Positions 25,653-33,891 of a DNA stretch of 64,000 nt are shown one piece after another. The number at the start of each line of letters is the position of its first letter. Within the stretch, counting starts at the first letter, position 1. The notes beneath the pieces were generated by a model that worked only from the letters and a program-made list of their open reading frames with translations, ran no database searches and was not told the origin of the DNA. The DNA is from an uncultured Flavobacterium sp. GTDB lineage: Bacteria > Bacteroidota > Bacteroidia > Flavobacteriales > Flavobacteriaceae. The stretch spans positions 115,165 through 179,164 of the forward strand of contig CAZTLN010000002.1 of assembly GCA_964614445.1 (NCBI GenBank). Reading direction: 5' to 3'. The translations under genes were made by a program, and so were the position numbers.

Positions 25653-27848
25653 TTAAAATTTAAAGGTAATTCCGGCAAGGAAATTAGTCCCCGCCTGCGG
25701 ATAATATCCTGCACCTTCAATAGTGGTTATTTGGGTAGCACTTGACCAGTTATCGTCATAAGTATAAAAATACCCGTTTGAAACATATTTTTGGTCAAAT
25801 AAGTTATTAACCAAAGCTGATATCACTATGGATTTAAAAACCGATTTTGGATTTAATTCATAAGAAACATTCAAATCATTTACAAAATAAGAATCTAATA
25901 TAGAAACTTCTGAATCTATATTCCCCATATACTGCTCCCCTACAAATTTCGACAAAAACGAAATCTGCAGATTTTCCAATGGAAGGAAAGTGATACTATT
26001 CCCCGCTACAATTTCAGGAGAATAAGCAATATTGGTGTTGCCTAAATTTGTCAACTCTCCGTCTCTTTGAAAATAGAAATCTTTATTTTTATTAGCACTC
26101 AAAGTAAAATTTGGTCTAATAATCAATTTATCCATTAATGAAATGGAAGCATCCACCTCAAGGCCCAATCGGTAACTATCACCACTATTTGCCCTTATCG
26201 GACTTCCCACATTATCAATATCACCTGTAAGGATTAACTGATCCTTGTATGCCATATAATAAATATTAGCATTGAATTTTACCTTAGATGTTGCATGACG
26301 CAATCCTAACTCAAAATCATCAAGCTTCTCAGGTCTTGGATTACCATTCTCATAATCGGTTCTATTTGGCTCCCGATTTGCTCTGGCATAGGAGAAATAG
26401 AGTTTATTGTTATTATCTAATGAATAGTTCAGACCTGCTTTGGGATTGAAAAAGTTGAAATTATCATTTACAAGGTTAGTTTCCGGACTGTCAGCTTTAT
26501 AATGCACATTACGAAGTTGCAAATCCCCATATAAGTTCAAATTAGAACTAAGCTGATAATTAGCTTTTGCATAAAGGTTCCCATCTGTTTTAGAAGCATA
26601 ATCGTCATAATAATGATCTCCCAATTCGCTTTGAGAAGCAAAACGTGCCCAAATTACTTTTCCAAAGTGATCTCCTTCATATTTATTATAACCGCCTCCG
26701 AAAATCACCTCTAAATTTTCCTGTTTATAATTAACAGAAAAGGTGGCTCCGTAAAAATCATTGTCTAACCACTTTTGACGTATCAAATCAGTTGAATCCT
26801 CTGAACCAACAGCTAGTAGTCCAAAATCTTCAAAGGCAGCATCTTCCTGATAGTTTTCATAATACCCTTTCCCTTTTGTATAGTGCAAGGCAAAATTTGT
26901 GTTCCATTTATCTGAAACCTTTTCATTCCAATGCAGCTGGAAATGATCTTGTTGATAATTGTCGGTTTCATTGTCATAGAAGCGGGTATTCCCATTTTCA
27001 TCTGTAAAATATCCAGCCCAGTTAAACTTTCTGTCCGTTTTCAAAGTCTCACCGTCAATACCATACCATGACTGATAAGTTTTCTCTTTTCCGCCAAAAG
27101 TCAAAGCTTTAATCAAAGTCGTTTTTCCAACATAGGTTCCCTGTAGAAAATAGGATTTCAAATCAGAACTTCCACGATCTATATAACCATCAGATTTTAA
27201 ATCAGATAGCCGACCTGCGATTTCAAAGTGGTTGTTCATTAAACCCGTACTAAACTTAACAGTACTTTTTCTGGTATTAAAACTCCCAAATGAATTGGAA
27301 ATCTCAGCATTACCAACTTTTGAATATGCATCTGTCAACATATTCAAACTAGCTCCAAAAGCTCCTGCTCCATTTGTAGATGTTCCCACACCTCGTTGTA
27401 ACTGTAAACTTTCAACAGAGGAAGCAAAATCCGGCAAATCCACCCAATACGTGCCCTGACCTTCTGCATCATTATAGGGAATACCATTTATGGTAACATT
27501 AACTCTTGTTGCGTCGCTACCGCGAACACGAATACCTGTATATCCTACTCCATTTCCTGCATCTGAAGTTGTCACTACCGATGGCAAATAGTTCATTAAT
27601 ATTGGTAAATCCTGACCTAAATTTCGAAGCGAAATTTCTTTTTTACTCAAATTACTGTAACTAACTGGAGTTTTTGCGGTAACGCGAACTGCTGAAACGA
27701 GCACCTCATCTAACTGATTAACTGAGGTAGTGTCTTTTATTTGTTGAGAAAAAGAAAATAAAGAAAATAATAAAAAGAAGTAAATGAAAATTCTTCTTTG
27801 AGTCCTCAATGCCGACTCTGTGTTGATGGTTTTAAAAATAATATCCAT
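25653..27848 (-). CDS. TonB-dependent receptor, probably for thiamine
   Basis: Signal peptide, TonB box LDEVLVSA, plug motifs (RGSDATRVNVTINGIP, LQRGVGTSTNG), C-terminal GITFKF; TPP riboswitch upstream. Confidence 0.9.
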   Translation of the reverse strand: MDIIFKTINTESALRTQRRIFIYFFLLFSLFSFSQQIKDTTSVNQLDEVLVSAVRVTAKTPVSYSNLSKKEISLRNLGQDLPILMNYLPSVVTTSDAGNGVGYTGIRVRGSDATRVNVTINGIPYNDAEGQGTYWVDLPDFASSVESLQLQRGVGTSTNGAGAFGASLNMLTDAYSKVGNAEISNSFGSFNTRKSTVKFSTGLMNNHFEIAGRLSDLKSDGYIDRGSSDLKSYFLQGTYVGKTTLIKALTFGGKEKTYQSWYGIDGETLKTDRKFNWAGYFTDENGNTRFYDNETDNYQQDHFQLHWNEKVSDKWNTNFALHYTKGKGYYENYQEDAAFEDFGLLAVGSEDSTDLIRQKWLDNDFYGATFSVNYKQENLEVIFGGGYNKYEGDHFGKVIWARFASQSELGDHYYDDYASKTDGNLYAKANYQLSSNLNLYGDLQLRNVHYKADSPETNLVNDNFNFFNPKAGLNYSLDNNNKLYFSYARANREPNRTDYENGNPRPEKLDDFELGLRHATSKVKFNANIYYMAYKDQLILTGDIDNVGSPIRANSGDSYRLGLEVDASISLMDKLIIRPNFTLSANKNKDFYFQRDGELTNLGNTNIAYSPEIVAGNSITFLPLENLQISFLSKFVGEQYMGNIDSEVSILDSYFVNDLNVSYELNPKSVFKSIVISALVNNLFDQKYVSNGYFYTYDDNWSSATQITTIEGAGYYPQAGTNFLAGITFKF

Positions 27849-27949
27849 TCGTCAAATGTCCTGCGAATAATAGGGGGTATTACTCTTGTTTTTAAATTAT
27901 TAATTGATATGCCTATGACGACCAAGCTGTGCACCACTTTATCGTCAAT

Positions 27950-28025
27950 TTTCCCTTAGCAACATTACTTGCCCAGGTTCGTTGGGTATGATCTCAGCTC
28001 GTTATTTAGAGCACCCCTTTGAGAC
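27950..28025 (-). ncRNA. TPP (THI-box) riboswitch
   Basis: Reverse complement reads AAAGGGGTGC...GAGCTGAGATCATACCCAACGAACCTGGGCAAGTAATGTTGCTAAGGGAA, with the GCTGAGA, ATACCC..GAACCTG and TAATG..GC..AGGGAA hallmarks. Confidence 0.95.
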
Positions 28026-28029
28026 GGCG

Positions 28030-28060
28030 CAAAAGTAATTATTAAAAACAAAAAAACAAA
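28030..28060 (-). promoter_or_regulatory. Promoter driving the TPP riboswitch/TBDT transcript
   Basis: TACTTTTG (28030-28037 complement), 19-nt spacer, TTTG (28057-28060). Confidence 0.8.
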
Positions 28061-28087: not shown

Positions 28088-28492
28088 TTAGTCAATCTTA
28101 GGCTTTTTTCTCTGTTGTTTAACCAATGAGGATCTCTGTTTATCTTTTATTCGCTTTCTGATAACTGATTTGGGAACTTTGGTCTCCTTTCTTATTTTAA
28201 CAACCTGCAAACCTTTCTCAAGTAGTTTCAAAAATCGATTGGTTATTATTTCCTTGTTTTTAAGTTGGCTACGATCCATGTCGCAGTTTAGAATTAAAAT
28301 GGATTGTGCAGTTAATCTGGAGGAAAGATTTTTCTTTAGCAGTATTTTTTCTTCTTCAGTCAATGAAGATGAGTTTTTCAAATCGAAGGAAAGTACAACT
28401 TTTGAAGCAACTTTGTTTACATTTTGTCCTCCTGCACCGCTACTGCGGACAGCCTTGAAATTTAATTCGGATATAATTCTCTGAACATCCAA
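28088..28492 (-). CDS. arfB: Alternative ribosome rescue factor ArfB (peptidyl-tRNA hydrolase), TTG start
   Basis: RSSGAGGQNVNKV (GGQ), RSQLKNK, basic C-tail. Confidence 0.93.
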   Translation of the reverse strand: MDVQRIISELNFKAVRSSGAGGQNVNKVASKVVLSFDLKNSSSLTEEEKILLKKNLSSRLTAQSILILNCDMDRSQLKNKEIITNRFLKLLEKGLQVVKIRKETKVPKSVIRKRIKDKQRSSLVKQQRKKPKID

Positions 28493-28495
28493 AAT

Positions 28496-30115
28496 CTAAA
28501 TGGATTGATGAGCTTCCTTAAGCAAATCATTAACAGTCTTCACCGGATTGAAAGTAATAAGTGGTACCTCAACAAAAACGGTCAGCCAATTTGCCATAGC
28601 TCCATTCCATAAACCGGGTAATTCATAAGCTTTAATGTCTCTTCCCTCGAATGTTTTTTCAACTATAAAACCACTATCTGGATCAACAAACTTTGTTAAA
28701 TCAAATTTTTCATTTTTGTAATTTTTTGTCCCACAAACCAAATCCACAGGATTAAAATGAGACGAATCGTCAAAAATTTTGGCTTGTTCCGGATTAGTTA
28801 AATCCACTTGCGAGGATTCAACTATTTGCAGGCTAACCTCATTATCAGCATTTATTACCCAAAAAGGACCTCCTCCTGGTTCTCCTTCATTTTTCACCAT
28901 TCCACAAACACGAATCGGACGATTTAAGACCTGATGTAGACGTATAATTTTCGCCTCTGTGCCCAAGTTATCAAAACCATGATTGACTTCGAAATTAATT
29001 TTATCCTTCAAAAAGGCTTTAATTTCTATAATCTGCTCTGGAGAAATTACACCTGAATCAATTAGAAGTAAATAATCAAAAATCTGTCTTTGCAGTTCAA
29101 CTAAAACACCTGCCAGCGCTTTCTTATATAATGCTATATTTTCATTATTATGCAAAATCACATTGTCAATGTTCTTAATGAAAATAACATCGGCATCCAG
29201 TTTGTTCAAATTGCCAATTAAGGCTCCATGACCTCCAGGTCTGAATAATAATCGACCATCGCTTTTTCTGAATGGACTATTATTCTCATCAACCGCAATA
29301 GTATCGGTACTTTTGTCTTGGTACGAATAACTTACCTGGATAGTTGTATCTGTTTCATTTTCGACATTACCTTTTACGGAATCAATTATCTGTTCAAATT
29401 GTGATTGGTGTGATTCTGATACCGTAAAATGTAAAAATGAATTATGATTTGAACTTGAATAATAACCACATTCGTACAAATGTTCTTCAATGGGTGTGGC
29501 AATCGTTGTGGCATATTTATGAAAAGGCAAAATTCCTTTTGGTTTGTTTGCAAAATCAAAATAGTCCGAAGAGAGCATAAACTTTACAAAATAATAGTTC
29601 TTATAATCTCGGGACAAAGAATCAAAATCATCTATCTCTTCCTTTAATTTGCTGTAAACACTGTTAAAAAAAGGAAATTTGTCCATCCCCACTATAAAAA
29701 CCATCAGTTTGTCATCCTTTTTTCGGTTGATGTATGCATTGATTGTTTCATTTTCGACATCAAAATCATTGAGAAAAACACTCAAAAACTTAAACATCCT
29801 ACTTGCCGCACCAGATGCAGGCACAAATTTCAGCAATTTAAATTTTGATTTATGGCTGTCAAAAAAATCAGCTTTTTGGATAAAATTACTTTGGGATAAT
29901 TTGATTATTCCGTTACCAAGAGTGGCTGGTTCCACTAATTTCATTTTAGGTATGCCTTTTTGAAAAATATCCAGCTGCTTTTGGATATTGCCTAAGGGAA
30001 TTCCATAATCTTTGATTTGAGCAAGATCATTTAAGGAAAAGTTCTTCATACTACTTTTATCTGAATCCTTTATAATTTCCTGGATATCTGAATTTGATTT
30101 ATTAACTCCCTGCAT
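28496..30115 (-). CDS. DUF4301 family protein (putative nucleotidyltransferase)
   Basis: KFVPASGAASRMFK, RPGGHGAL, FIKNIDNV, CGMVKNEGEPGGGPFW, ELPGLWNGAM, FNPVKTVNDLL. Confidence 0.88.
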   Translation of the reverse strand: MQGVNKSNSDIQEIIKDSDKSSMKNFSLNDLAQIKDYGIPLGNIQKQLDIFQKGIPKMKLVEPATLGNGIIKLSQSNFIQKADFFDSHKSKFKLLKFVPASGAASRMFKFLSVFLNDFDVENETINAYINRKKDDKLMVFIVGMDKFPFFNSVYSKLKEEIDDFDSLSRDYKNYYFVKFMLSSDYFDFANKPKGILPFHKYATTIATPIEEHLYECGYYSSSNHNSFLHFTVSESHQSQFEQIIDSVKGNVENETDTTIQVSYSYQDKSTDTIAVDENNSPFRKSDGRLLFRPGGHGALIGNLNKLDADVIFIKNIDNVILHNNENIALYKKALAGVLVELQRQIFDYLLLIDSGVISPEQIIEIKAFLKDKINFEVNHGFDNLGTEAKIIRLHQVLNRPIRVCGMVKNEGEPGGGPFWVINADNEVSLQIVESSQVDLTNPEQAKIFDDSSHFNPVDLVCGTKNYKNEKFDLTKFVDPDSGFIVEKTFEGRDIKAYELPGLWNGAMANWLTVFVEVPLITFNPVKTVNDLLKEAHQSI

Positions 30116-30216: not shown

Positions 30217-30840
30217 TTAAAGTAAACCCTCTTTTTCTTTCAGGATTTTTCGCCATTCTAAATAAGCTGATATAGCTAAAGTCGTAAAAATCAAATACTG
30301 CAGGGACAACATCCCTAGTCCTCTGTAGGCATACAATGGCGTCACAATTATATCCCCAATGATCCATAGTGTCCAATTCTCAATTTTCTTATGAGCCATA
30401 AACCACATACCGGCAAAAAATATTCCAGATGCTAGAATATCCACATAATTGTCAGTATGAATCTGATAATCAAAAATTATATAAATCAAGTATACAACCA
30501 TTACTGTAATAAAAAACAATCCAAACCCAACCAGCTTTTCTTTAATACTTGACCTGGATATTGGCAGTTTCTCATCATTATCTATTTTCCTTGTCCATTT
30601 ATACCAACCATAAATACTCATTATGGTAAAATACCCATTGATAATCATGTCCCCAACATAACCCGCGATAAAAAGCAAATAAACCGTTATAACAGTTGCA
30701 ACGATGCCGGTGGGATACACCAACACATTTTCTTTTTTTGCAAAAACAACACTTAGAATACCAAATACAAAAACAACAAACTCCAAAAAGATTTGTGTTA
30801 TTGAAGCATCTTTATAGGCATTAAGAAAAAAATCTATCAT
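30217..30840 (-). CDS. pnuC: PnuC-family vitamin/nucleoside transporter
   Basis: YPTGIV, YGWYKW, KKIENWTLWIIGD motifs; about 7 TM segments. Confidence 0.9.
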   Translation of the reverse strand: MIDFFLNAYKDASITQIFLEFVVFVFGILSVVFAKKENVLVYPTGIVATVITVYLLFIAGYVGDMIINGYFTIMSIYGWYKWTRKIDNDEKLPISRSSIKEKLVGFGLFFITVMVVYLIYIIFDYQIHTDNYVDILASGIFFAGMWFMAHKKIENWTLWIIGDIIVTPLYAYRGLGMLSLQYLIFTTLAISAYLEWRKILKEKEGLL

Positions 30841-31592
30841 TTTAAATCTAAAATCTTATGTACACTATACTTATTAAAAAATTCCGTATCCTTCTCAAAA
30901 GCGGTACCAATTACCACCATGTCCGCCCCTGCATTGTAAGCATCCTGAATACCGCGCAAATGTATAATTCCTCCGCCAACAATTACAGGAATAAGAACAT
31001 TTTTAGAAACCAGTGATATCATCTCAATAGGAACGGACTGCATAGCACCACTCCCAGCTTCCAAATAGACCAGTTTGTTACCCAACATTTCACCAGCCTG
31101 ACAGGTGGCAAGAACACGATCGTTGTCAGTTCTTGAAATAGGGGTGGTATTACTCACACGCTCCACTGCTGTTTGGGATCCGCTTTCAATTAAAAGATAG
31201 GCCGTAGGAATAATTTCTAAATTTGTTTTCTTCAAAATTGGCGCAGCCTGCACATGATATTCAATCAAATAATCGGGGTTTCGTCCAGACAATAACGAGA
31301 GAAACAAAATTCCATCAGCATTTTCTGAAATCTGTGAGGGATGTCCCGGGAAAAGAATTATCGGAAGTGATAAGTCCTTCTTTATTTTTGCAATTAAATT
31401 GTCCAGTATATCGTTGGTCACCAGGCTCCCACCTATAAGTAAATGTGTTGCCGGGGATCGTTTAATATTAACAACCAGTTCATCTAAATTTTCCCAGATT
31501 ATTTTATCGGGATCAATAAGGATCGCTAGTAATTTATTTCCTGTTAACTTCGCCTTAAGGATATCTTTATATAGAATGGTACTACTATTCAT
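30837..31592 (-). CDS. Geranylgeranylglyceryl/heptaprenylglyceryl phosphate synthase (group II GGGPS, PcrB-like family)
   Basis: LIDPDK, GGS, FPG..SQI, LSLLSGRNP, YLEAGSGA, IVGGGI, VVIGT. Confidence 0.93.
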   Translation of the reverse strand: MNSSTILYKDILKAKLTGNKLLAILIDPDKIIWENLDELVVNIKRSPATHLLIGGSLVTNDILDNLIAKIKKDLSLPIILFPGHPSQISENADGILFLSLLSGRNPDYLIEYHVQAAPILKKTNLEIIPTAYLLIESGSQTAVERVSNTTPISRTDNDRVLATCQAGEMLGNKLVYLEAGSGAMQSVPIEMISLVSKNVLIPVIVGGGIIHLRGIQDAYNAGADMVVIGTAFEKDTEFFNKYSVHKILDLK

Positions 31593-31694
31593 TTAAATTT
31601 TAGATGCTTATTTTGGGAGTATTATTTAATTAATGACGTTAAAAATGAAAAGTGTTTTTATCATTCTCATCAAAAATTACTAAAAACGAAAAAA

Positions 31695-32327
31695 CTATTT
31701 TTCCATGGCGTAAACCAGGCTAAAATCTTCTACATCTTCAAAAAATACTTTAAACTCTTCATTAATCCCATTAAAATTCAAATTTGCAAGTGCAGTAAAC
31801 TCTTCCAATCTGAATTCAGCCACATTAATATGATCTTTAAAACTAATTCCCTTCTCGTTTCTGATTTTAAAAATAGATTCCTTGATACCCCAAATCACAG
31901 TTAACTTTTTAATATAGTCTGTTGAGTGATCTTTTTCCAAAAATTCGAATTCAGCATTACAAAATTTATCAGCAATTCGGATAATTTTCTCCCGCTGAAG
32001 TTCAATATCAATACCCACTTTTTTATCACTTATAATTATAGAAGAAAATTGGTGAGAATGCGTTATTGAAATATATTTGCCATCATGCAAATGTGGTTTT
32101 CCGAATTCATCATAATATAAATCAAAATCATTATAACCGGCTTCGCCCAAAAGTTTTCGGACGCTGAGAAAACCTCTTTGATGTAATTCAGACTTCATAC
32201 CCTCAACGCGCTGCTTACAGCTTTCTTTCAGAGCTATTTCTTCTGATAATTTCTGAAAGGACTCTGTAATCTTCCATACGTAGACAGTTGTTGAACTATC
32301 GAAATTATATTTTTTGAATAGAGGCAT
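31695..32327 (-). CDS. 4'-phosphopantetheinyl transferase (Sfp-type)
   Basis: YDEFGKP, ISITHS, VGIDIE, WGIKES. Confidence 0.88.
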   Translation of the reverse strand: MPLFKKYNFDSSTTVYVWKITESFQKLSEEIALKESCKQRVEGMKSELHQRGFLSVRKLLGEAGYNDFDLYYDEFGKPHLHDGKYISITHSHQFSSIIISDKKVGIDIELQREKIIRIADKFCNAEFEFLEKDHSTDYIKKLTVIWGIKESIFKIRNEKGISFKDHINVAEFRLEEFTALANLNFNGINEEFKVFFEDVEDFSLVYAMEK

Positions 32328-32574
32328 GATATTTATATCCCTGAATTATGACCCAAAAACAAACAAAATACTTTTAAAAAATGATAGCAGAACATAATAT
32401 CTGCTGGGAATGGATTTTTACTAAAAAAACAACTTTCTGAATTGCAATATATTAGTACACAAAAATCCCAATCATTAAATCATTTGAACAATTCATAAAT
32501 ATTGTTTAAATTAGTTTAAAATTGAAGTTATTGTTTAATTTTGTCAAAAATTTATAATTACAAATATACTATAA

Positions 32575-33891
32575 ATGAGTACTACAACAATTCCATATGT
32601 TCCATACAAAGTTAAAGACATTACTCTGGCTGAATGGGGAAGAAAAGAAATTCAATTAGCTGAAGCTGAAATGCCAGGATTAATGGCAATTCGCGAGGAG
32701 TATGGCCCAAGCCAACCTTTAAAAGGAGCTCGTATCGCGGGGTGTTTACACATGACGATCCAGACTGCTGTGCTAATCGAAACTTTGGCGGCTTTAGGAG
32801 CTGAAGTTACCTGGTCTTCTTGCAACATTTTCTCTACTCAGGATCACGCTGCTGCTGCAATTGCTGCTGCGGGAATTCCGGTTTATGCCTGGAAAGGTTT
32901 AAATGAAGAAGAATTTGACTGGTGTATTGAACAAACCTTATTCTTTGGAGAGGACAGAAAACCATTGAACATGATATTGGATGATGGTGGAGACTTAACT
33001 AATATGGTTTTTGACCGTTACCCTGAATTAACTGCTAACATCAAAGGACTTTCTGAAGAAACTACTACAGGAGTTCACCGTCTCTACGAAAGAATGAAAA
33101 ACGGAACTTTGGTAATGCCCGCAATCAACGTAAATGATTCGGTTACCAAGTCAAAATTTGATAACAAATACGGATGTAAAGAATCAGCTGTTGATGCTGT
33201 TCGCCGTGCAACTGACATTATGTTGGCTGGTAAAAGAGTTGTTGTTTGTGGATACGGTGACGTTGGTAAAGGTACTGCTGCTTCTTTCCGTGGTGCTGGT
33301 TCTATAGTTACTGTTACTGAAATCGATCCTATCTGTGCTTTACAAGCAGCAATGGATGGTTACGAAGTAAAACGTTTAGATACTGTAGTTGATAATGCTG
33401 ACATCATCATTACTACAACAGGTAACTTTAATATTGTAAGAGGCGAGCACTTCTTAAAATTAAAGGACAAGGCTATCGTTTGTAATATCGGACACTTCGA
33501 TAACGAAATCGATATGGCTTGGTTGAACGCCAACTATGGTGCTACAAAATCTGAAGTTAAACCACAAGTTGACATTTATAATGTAGAAGGAAAAGAAATC
33601 ATCATCCTTGCGGAAGGGCGTTTGGTAAACTTAGGATGTGCGACAGGACACCCATCTTTTGTAATGTCTAACTCATTCTCAAACCAAACTTTAGCTCAAA
33701 TCGAACTTTGGAATAACTCAGCTGCTTACGGAAACGAAGTATATATGTTACCAAAGCATTTAGATGAAAAAGTTGCTGCCTTACACCTTAAAAAATTAAG
33801 TGTAGAATTGGAAGTCCTTTCTAAGGAACAAGCTGATTATATTGGTGTTGCAGTTGAAGGCCCATATAAACCGGAATATTACAGATACTAA
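32575..33891 (+). CDS. ahcY: S-adenosylhomocysteine hydrolase
   Basis: [60 protein letters not shown] promoter near 32536. Confidence 0.99.

Follow-up and report, generated by a model that had tools for sequence, protein, structure and literature searches.

In Bacillus subtilis, the PcrB/AraM/YvoF pathway yields heptaprenylglyceryl phosphate, which is then dephosphorylated and acetylated. A group II geranylgeranylglyceryl phosphate synthase (GGGPS) of Flavobacterium johnsoniae was reportedly studied by Peterhoff et al. in 2014, and PDB entry 4jej is the structure of this enzyme. GGGPS orthologs from the Bacteroidota have geranylgeranylglyceryl phosphate (GGGP) synthase activity with glycerol-1-phosphate (G1P) in vitro (PMC7852524), and both the biological role of the enzyme in this phylum (PMC7888582; PMC9179154) and its end product (PMC7888582) have been given as unknown. 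Thiamine uptake in Bacteroides thetaiotaomicron involves a thiamine pyrophosphate (TPP) riboswitch, the TonB-dependent receptor OMthi, the transporter PnuT and Tnr3 (PMC5613172), and motifs common to PnuC and PnuT have been described (PMC5749112). In this study, we analyzed a window of 64,000 nucleotides (nt) from an uncultured Flavobacterium sp. (assembly GCA_964614445.1, contig CAZTLN010000002.1, positions 115,165 to 179,164 of the forward strand), in which a GGGPS gene lies in a string with genes for a phosphopantetheinyl transferase (PPTase; gene PPT), a vitamin transporter of the PnuC family, a DUF4301 protein and a TonB-dependent receptor (Table 1). It had originally been predicted from the sequence of this window that the genes coupled to GGGPS may point to later steps in the synthesis of a flavobacterial ether lipid, or to its carriers. 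In our literature searches, no paper connected GGGPS to thiamine genes, PnuC or PPTase or described the neighborhood of GGGPS, and DUF4301 was mentioned once, incidentally.

The identities and layout of the genes were as the original prediction had them. PPTase, GGGPS and PnuC are all encoded on the minus strand, their domain, subfamily and motif matches agree, and the overlap of the GGGPS stop codon with the pnuC start codon in an ATGA was read directly from the sequence. The gaps on either side of these two overlapping genes are 102 nt (PPT to GGGPS) and 101 nt (pnuC to DUF4301). The GGGPS protein matched the PcrB family model PF01884 with 120 bits (cut-off 24), the subfamily model NF003198 with 283 bits (cut-off 247) and TIGR01769 with 178 bits (cut-off 162), and it aligned with 4jej over 236 residues (5-240) with 349 bits, an E-value of 1e-103 and no notable gaps. 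Judged by these matches, it is an ordinary ortholog of the characterized group II Flavobacterium enzyme. GGGPS is present in 73 of the 151 sampled genomes of the order Flavobacteriales, nearly all or none per family, and in 221 of the 251 sampled genomes of the class Bacteroidia, a tally that takes in two unpublished genomes (G242 and G325), as no other claim in this text does. A 318-amino-acid open reading frame (ORF) at G000:C5:49861-50319 (minus strand) showed weak partial matches (19-25 bits) to GGGPS, TMP-TENI and ThiG, and is probably another phosphate-binding barrel protein.

We consider, with a probability of about 0.68, that the string consists of functionally separate units that have been neighbors from an early point in the history of the Bacteroidia. 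This reading builds on the observed gene identities, gene order and its distribution, phyletic patterns and gene losses. The first unit would be ahcY, divergent from a PPTase-GGGPS pair in which the PPTase would have a general role and GGGPS would join geranylgeranyl diphosphate to G1P. The second would be a salvage cassette, the full form of which has a YkoF-like gene (TenI-like in other orders), pnuC and a NadR-type kinase gene, to which some families have added or fused DUF4301; the vitamin would enter through PnuC by facilitated diffusion and be trapped by the kinase. The third would be a TPP riboswitch with its own promoter, controlling the TonB-dependent receptor in the outer membrane. 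The second and third units most likely provide thiamine to an organism that is unable to make it.

Gene order was compared across 80 Flavobacterium loci, with GGGPS sequences that are 63-69% identical, and across a wider sample of 80 flanks that covers 9 families of the order as well as 40 families from other orders; counts were obtained for 40 loci of the order and 37 loci of other orders. Synteny analysis had been suggested as a check of the original prediction, and the cluster did turn out to be conserved, deeper than Flavobacterium and into other orders of the class. All 80 Flavobacterium loci contain ahcY divergent from PPT, followed by GGGPS, pnuC, DUF4301, arfB, the receptor gene and greA. 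Since this block takes in ahcY, arfB and greA, it represents an inherited order that is uninformative on function; the position of arfB after DUF4301 is confined to family f1 (families are denoted by f-numbers). The overlap between GGGPS and pnuC is another matter. Both genes were called in 60 Flavobacterium loci; most of these have a spacer of +11 to +39 nt, and the overlap of -4 occurs once. The ATGA overlap is lineage-specific and poorly conserved.

Arrays that have lost GGGPS but are otherwise intact, seen in three lineages, and a locus with the cassette set apart from GGGPS served as natural experiments. A congener (L176) has kept the ahcY/PPT-pnuC-DUF4301-arfB-receptor string with GGGPS missing, and in a locus from another genus (L173) the cassette is located 110 kb from PPT-GGGPS. 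In families f2 and f8, PPT is followed by a spacer of about 0.6-0.9 kb and the kinase gene, with no GGGPS. The kinase is present in f2, f8, f10 and f15, in which GGGPS was not found, and it was not found in the GGGPS-bearing family f13.

The original prediction suggested that the PPTase might activate an acyl carrier of the ether lipid. The protein has 210 amino acids, matches PF01648 (ACPS) with 37 bits (cut-off 25) and Sfp structures weakly, and contains the motifs SITHS, VGIDIE and WGIKESIFK of Sfp-type enzymes intact. It is the single ACPS-family match in the genome of the window, which is 99.9% complete. An ACPS-family match was obtained for 137 of the 151 genomes of the order, in nearly all cases exactly one of about 190-230 amino acids (Sfp-type), and for all 13 endosymbiont genomes of 0.3-0.6 Mb, and separate small matches of the AcpS type were almost absent from the sampled genomes of the order. 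By this distribution the PPTase is a housekeeping, general holo-carrier-protein synthase. Because it is the sole such enzyme in the genome and occurs in nearly all sampled genomes of the order, it is expected to serve the acyl carrier protein (ACP) of fatty acid synthesis, and no ether-lipid client is needed to account for it.

DUF4301, for which activation of a lipid head group had been proposed, also proved to belong elsewhere. The window protein matches PF14134 with 686 bits. In about 70 of the 80 Flavobacterium loci (L003-L082), a single ORF directly after pnuC encodes an AAA_28 kinase fused to DUF4301; in the fused ORF of about 704 amino acids at L006:8313-10427 (plus strand), Pfam places AAA_28 at residues 14-172 and DUF4301 at residues 193-702. 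The window copy has lost the kinase part of the fusion. The gene fusion places DUF4301 with the PnuC/kinase route, and by analogy with the adenylyltransferase of NadR it suggests that DUF4301 would act on the phosphorylated product of this route. DUF4301 was found in f1, f4, f5, f10 and f14, of which f5, f10 and f14 are families where GGGPS was not found, and in 0 of the 56 sampled genomes of the GGGPS-bearing families f3, f9, f12, f13, f16 and f18. In loci L174, L175, L166, L170 and L177 (f4 and f10), DUF4301 adjoins a gene of about 600 codons, with or without a nearby pnuC; its product is a possible second partner of DUF4301.

Taken as a whole, the pathway model holds that the PPTase activates a dedicated carrier and that PnuC and/or DUF4301 supply or activate the head group of a flavobacterial ether lipid. 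Co-oriented and tightly spaced genes, the GGGPS/pnuC overlap, the wide conservation of the PPT-GGGPS and GGGPS-cassette adjacencies and the fact that the end product in the Bacteroidota is given as unknown (PMC7888582) all suit such a pathway, but a single PPTase serves this and nearly every sampled genome of the order, DUF4301 does not follow GGGPS across families and has the kinase associated with PnuC as its fusion partner, just 18 of the 40 loci of the order have pnuC at a distance of three genes or fewer from GGGPS, and the neighbors are intact where GGGPS is missing. With a housekeeping PPTase, pnuC in a separate salvage cassette and a lineage-specific overlap, this model is not supported, and we regard it as very unlikely. 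The alternative that had been left open originally, that the link is incidental, lies closest to the evidence.

Among the 40 loci of the order, 31 have PPT directly upstream of GGGPS, with a median gap of 14 nt; among the 37 loci of other orders, 17 do, with a median gap of 18 nt. In a hand count of the 73 GGGPS-bearing genomes of the order, PPT adjoins GGGPS in 55; for the remaining 18, it lies within 4 kb in 6, elsewhere in 8 and was undetermined in 4. Adjacency at this frequency, and a PPT-GGGPS spacing whose median is 14-18 nt across 48 loci (25 families), are what would be expected if PPT and GGGPS formed a true two-gene operon for membrane lipids, co-regulated with growth, to which the vitamin genes were passengers; the two products would also both act in lipid metabolism, one through holo-ACP for fatty acids and the other through the ether lipid. 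Such an operon is nevertheless unlikely in our estimation. In the 80 Flavobacterium loci, PPT and GGGPS are split by opposite-strand genes, namely one for a Crp-type regulator and one or two small ORFs; in f12 and in some f16 genomes the two genes sit on separate contigs or at a distance of more than 1 Mb, and the PPTase gene stays in place where GGGPS is missing.

The gene on the other side of PPT provides an internal control for conservation without an operon, since ahcY and PPT are divergent and cannot share a transcript. Every one of the 31 Flavobacteriales loci in which PPT is adjacent has this divergent pair, as do 8 of the 37 loci of other orders. As ahcY persists equally well without a common transcript, conservation alone is no proof of shared function.

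The partners that a lipid pathway would call for were searched for across genomes. The window contains no polyprenyl synthase, YvoF-like acetyltransferase or araM/egsA gene, in agreement with the original prediction: both polyprenyl synthase copies of the genome are located outside the window, its one Mac/YvoF-family gene is on another contig, unlinked to GGGPS, and no G1P dehydrogenase was found genome-wide. The five UbiA-family matches in the genome, four of them above the cut-off, are all outside the window as well. Two matches to Fe-ADH_2 (PF13685) were considered as G1P dehydrogenases and rejected, one being AroB (338 bits) and the other an iron alcohol dehydrogenase. The G1P dehydrogenase model NF002022 scored above its cut-off in none of the 151 genomes of the order, and weaker relatives (82-220 bits) were recovered only from three f4 genomes and one f8 genome. 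The source of G1P for GGGPS in this order therefore appears, from the model matches, to be without a recognizable enzyme in nearly all sampled genomes. A missing source of the acceptor has been remarked on earlier for other bacteria that belong to the FCB group, named after Fibrobacteres, Chlorobi and Bacteroidetes (PMC7852524).

Acetyltransferases of the Mac (YvoF) family were identified in 8 of 14 sampled genomes of f1, 12 of 14 of f7, 3 of 9 of f10 and 1 of 4 of f5. GGGPS was not found in f7, the family rich in these acetyltransferases, and no Mac/YvoF-family member was found in the sampled genomes of the GGGPS-bearing families f3, f4, f6, f9, f12, f13, f16 and f18. A Bacillus-type acetylation by YvoF as the general end step was rejected on account of this phyletic mismatch with GGGPS.

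The salvage cassette is best seen in the relatives. In most families of the order, GGGPS is followed by a gene for a protein of 86-88 amino acids from the Thiamine_BP/YkoF family, and in other orders by a TMP-TENI (ThiE/TenI) family gene for a protein of about 209 amino acids, both assigned with Pfam. Then come pnuC, a gene for an AAA_28 protein of 160-190 amino acids, a TPP riboswitch and the TonB receptor gene. The AAA_28 protein of the relatives matches the ribosylnicotinamide-kinase region of NadR with 107 bits. The window pnuC is the only PnuC-family match in its genome; the protein scored 160 bits against PF04973 (NMN_transporter) and 84 bits against TIGR01528, and the WxxW(x)3D motif of the sixth transmembrane helix is present as WTLWIIGD. 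In a phylogenetic tree, it is placed in a well-supported clade with PnuC proteins of f1 and f4 that come from YkoF-like/pnuC/AAA_28 cassettes, and in tblastn searches the identity to the window protein was only 23-28% outside these two families. In other orders, GGGPS and the TenI/ThiE-like gene after it share a strand in L126, L142 and L156, and a putative thiamine-biosynthesis operon, assigned by gene size and order and with a second TenI/ThiE-like gene, is convergent to GGGPS in L126, L138, L142 and L156.

It could be argued from this neighborhood that GGGPS is itself tied to thiamine or vitamin metabolism, with either its lipid product or an acceptor from the neighboring kinase or ThiE-like enzyme serving vitamin acquisition, which would explain why the gene has remained next to thiamine genes throughout the class. 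Like GGGPS, ThiE is a phosphate-binding barrel, and both act on substrates with a diphosphate leaving group. The gene directly after GGGPS is TenI/ThiE-like or YkoF-like in 23 of the 40 loci of the order and, for other orders, in 12 of 37 families, the gap often being -4 to +17 nt, the putative thiamine-biosynthesis cluster recurs in convergent position in several other orders, and with no G1P dehydrogenase above the cut-off in the 151 genomes the supply of the acceptor in vivo is unexplained. However, the kinase cassette occurs in four families where GGGPS was not found and was not found in one that has GGGPS, L176 keeps the cassette although it has no GGGPS, and the divergent ahcY, conserved to the same degree, indicates that the region keeps unrelated neighbors. 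The orthologs, moreover, make GGGP from G1P in vitro (PMC7852524). On balance, such a tie is very unlikely. The more specific proposal, that GGGPS works with the vitamin-salvage module, so that its lipid serves uptake or its acceptor in vivo is a phosphorylated product of the module rather than G1P, would seem less probable still. A real link between GGGPS and vitamins keeps this small probability because of the persistence of the array and the lack of a G1P dehydrogenase in the order.

Several points weigh against the reading of separate neighboring units. Conservation of the array goes far past the level that is usual for unrelated neighbors. It has lasted in several orders of the class, PPT, GGGPS and the leading cassette gene being set very closely together, and such persistence can reflect selection for co-expression. 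PPT and GGGPS adjoin each other in three quarters of the GGGPS-bearing genomes of the order (55 of 73), and a cassette gene comes directly after GGGPS in 29 of the 40 loci of the order and in 13 of the 37 loci of other orders. The signals for the substrate of PnuC also conflict, with a partner kinase of the nicotinamide riboside type in surroundings that are related to thiamine. Finally, the ORFs of the relatives come from a simple caller and were labeled with purpose-built hidden Markov models, with checks against Pfam and NCBIfam for representatives only.

The third unit of the proposed arrangement, the riboswitch and the receptor, points to thiamine. The riboswitch-like element of the window scored 32.3 bits against RF00059, below the gathering score of 54.3, and is missing the P3 stem. 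Its core (GGGGUGC..GCUGAGA..ACCC..GAACCUG..UAAU..GGGA) is kept with high posterior probability, and in relatives the RF00059 elements that occupy this position before the orthologous receptor gene score 52-55 bits. A -7 box of the Bacteroidota type (TACTTTTG) is located just upstream of the riboswitch, with a TTTG further upstream; it is a suggestive candidate for the promoter of the riboswitch and receptor, given that TAnnTTTG has a background of about 0.9 per kb and strand. No exact -7 box was found in the gaps between PPT and GGGPS or between pnuC and DUF4301. In 7 families of the order, and also in other orders, the riboswitch is followed by an ortholog of the receptor gene (40-60% identity), and the sequence of cassette, riboswitch and receptor was seen in many families and in other orders. 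From this context, the TonB receptor is a probable outer-membrane thiamine importer.

The window genome appears to depend on such an importer. ThiC and ThiE were not found in it, and ThiG gave only a partial match of 25 bits; thiamine pyrophosphokinase (TPK) is present on another contig (C6), together with one TPP riboswitch and one Pnu gene in the genome. With no ThiC or ThiE, no convincing ThiG and TPK kept, the organism would need to import thiamine and is an apparent auxotroph. In many families, including f8 and f15, in which GGGPS was not found, only about 15-120 nt lie between the end of the kinase gene and the TPP riboswitch, as in G015:C38:134157-134769, G071:C18:71338-71954 and G025:C4:129900-130537. 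The presence of a NadR-like kinase at a thiamine-regulated locus may mean that it is an unrecognized thiamine-related kinase. For the window PnuC itself, the riboswitch is located downstream of pnuC and TPK is on contig C6, so that the context that defines PnuT was not found. Its substrate would be thiamine or nicotinamide riboside; thiamine may be the more likely of the two, with indirect support from the apparent thiamine auxotrophy and from the single Pnu gene of the genome. No riboswitch, of the NAD type or other, was found ahead of PPT, GGGPS or pnuC. In one family of another order, a gene for 3-hydroxyanthranilate dioxygenase, an enzyme of NAD synthesis from tryptophan, is located directly after GGGPS (L133:8668-9294, plus strand); this is a single case.

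The ATGA overlap can be explained within the reading of separate units. The AAA_28 kinase, which adjoins pnuC in most relatives, was not found in the window or elsewhere in its genome, and the small YkoF-like gene between GGGPS and pnuC is absent from the window lineage. In this lineage, the kinase domain was lost along with the small gene that usually separates GGGPS from pnuC, in an order that can only be surmised, and the deletion of the small gene would have brought the GGGPS stop codon onto the pnuC start codon. GGGPS and pnuC are thus probably co-transcribed and translationally coupled in the window lineage, and we attribute this coupling to compaction rather than to a shared pathway.

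Upstream of PPT, the only exact -7 box is at 32561-32568 (minus strand), about 240 nt before the start codon, and a terminator-like hairpin with a T run is found between the two, at 32386-32405 (minus strand). The PPTase leader may accordingly be long. Terminator-like sites are no more common in the region than in shuffled sequence, and as a scan for sigma-70 promoters and terminators gave counts close to the shuffled expectation, it was not used as evidence. The features of the window are listed in Table 1.

Table 1. Positions, strands and supporting evidence for the features of the GGGPS neighborhood in the 64-kb window.
Feature	Position	Strand	Evidence or remark
TonB-dependent receptor	25653-27848	minus	plug and beta-barrel domains
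TPP riboswitch-like element, P3 stem absent	27933-28027	minus	RF00059, 32.3 bits
Bacteroidota-type -7 promoter box TACTTTTG (candidate)	28030-28037	minus	exact TAnnTTTG match
arfB, ribosome-rescue peptidyl-tRNA hydrolase	28088-28492	minus	NF006718, 110 bits (cut-off 100)
DUF4301 protein	28496-30115	minus	PF14134; no AAA_28 domain in window copy
pnuC, vitamin transporter of PnuC family	30217-30840	minus	Pfam, TIGR01528, motif
ATGA stop/start overlap, GGGPS/pnuC	30837-30840	minus	read from sequence
GGGPS (PcrB family), group II	30837-31592	minus	Pfam, NCBIfam and PDB 4jej matches
PPTase, Sfp-type	31695-32327	minus	ACPS domain and motifs; single copy in genome
ahcY (adenosylhomocysteinase)	32575-33891	plus, divergent from PPTase	TIGR00936, 626 bits

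The neighbors of GGGPS do not track it across genomes, and the gene context is a misleading clue to its role. Effort would be saved by not targeting pnuC and DUF4301 for knock-out as lipid genes. The presence and absence of GGGPS by family, and the intact arrays that are without it, are well suited for phylogenetic profiling of its real partners. As by-products, the analysis ties DUF4301 to the PnuC/kinase route and shows a NadR-like kinase gene welded to a thiamine riboswitch locus. What stands out in addition is the age of the array, which reaches into other orders of the class.

Compared to the described systems, the window GGGPS shows no substantive sequence difference from the F. johnsoniae enzyme (4jej); the two belong to the same NCBIfam subfamily, and the neighborhood is the same in Flavobacterium species. 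PcrB of B. subtilis is from the same enzyme family and catalyzes the ether-forming step, but it belongs to group I and the window enzyme to group II, and the Bacillus pathway has AraM, whereas the window genome shows no G1P dehydrogenase of the AraM/EgsA type. The window PPTase resembles Sfp-type PPTases in its length of about 210 amino acids, its ACPS domain and its catalytic motifs; it differs in that the cell has no other PPTase, a separate AcpS not having been found, and its main client is for that reason expected to be the fatty-acid ACP rather than a carrier of secondary metabolism.

The window PnuC shares the WxxW(x)3D motif with the family members of PnuC-NadR salvage, although it matches the Neisseria PnuC structure 4qtn with only 26 bits. 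The relatives pair PnuC with a NadR-like kinase, a pairing from which the kinase-less window genome differs. The fusion of kinase and DUF4301 in the relatives mimics the combination of kinase and nucleotidyltransferase in NadR, but DUF4301 is unrelated to the adenylyltransferase domain of NadR. The OMthi/PnuT/Tnr3 system of B. thetaiotaomicron, from the same phylum, also has a riboswitch before a TonB receptor gene and a Pnu transporter close by. In the window, however, pnuC is upstream of the riboswitch and outside its control, and the partner kinase of the relatives is of the NadR type (AAA_28) rather than a thiamine pyrophosphokinase.

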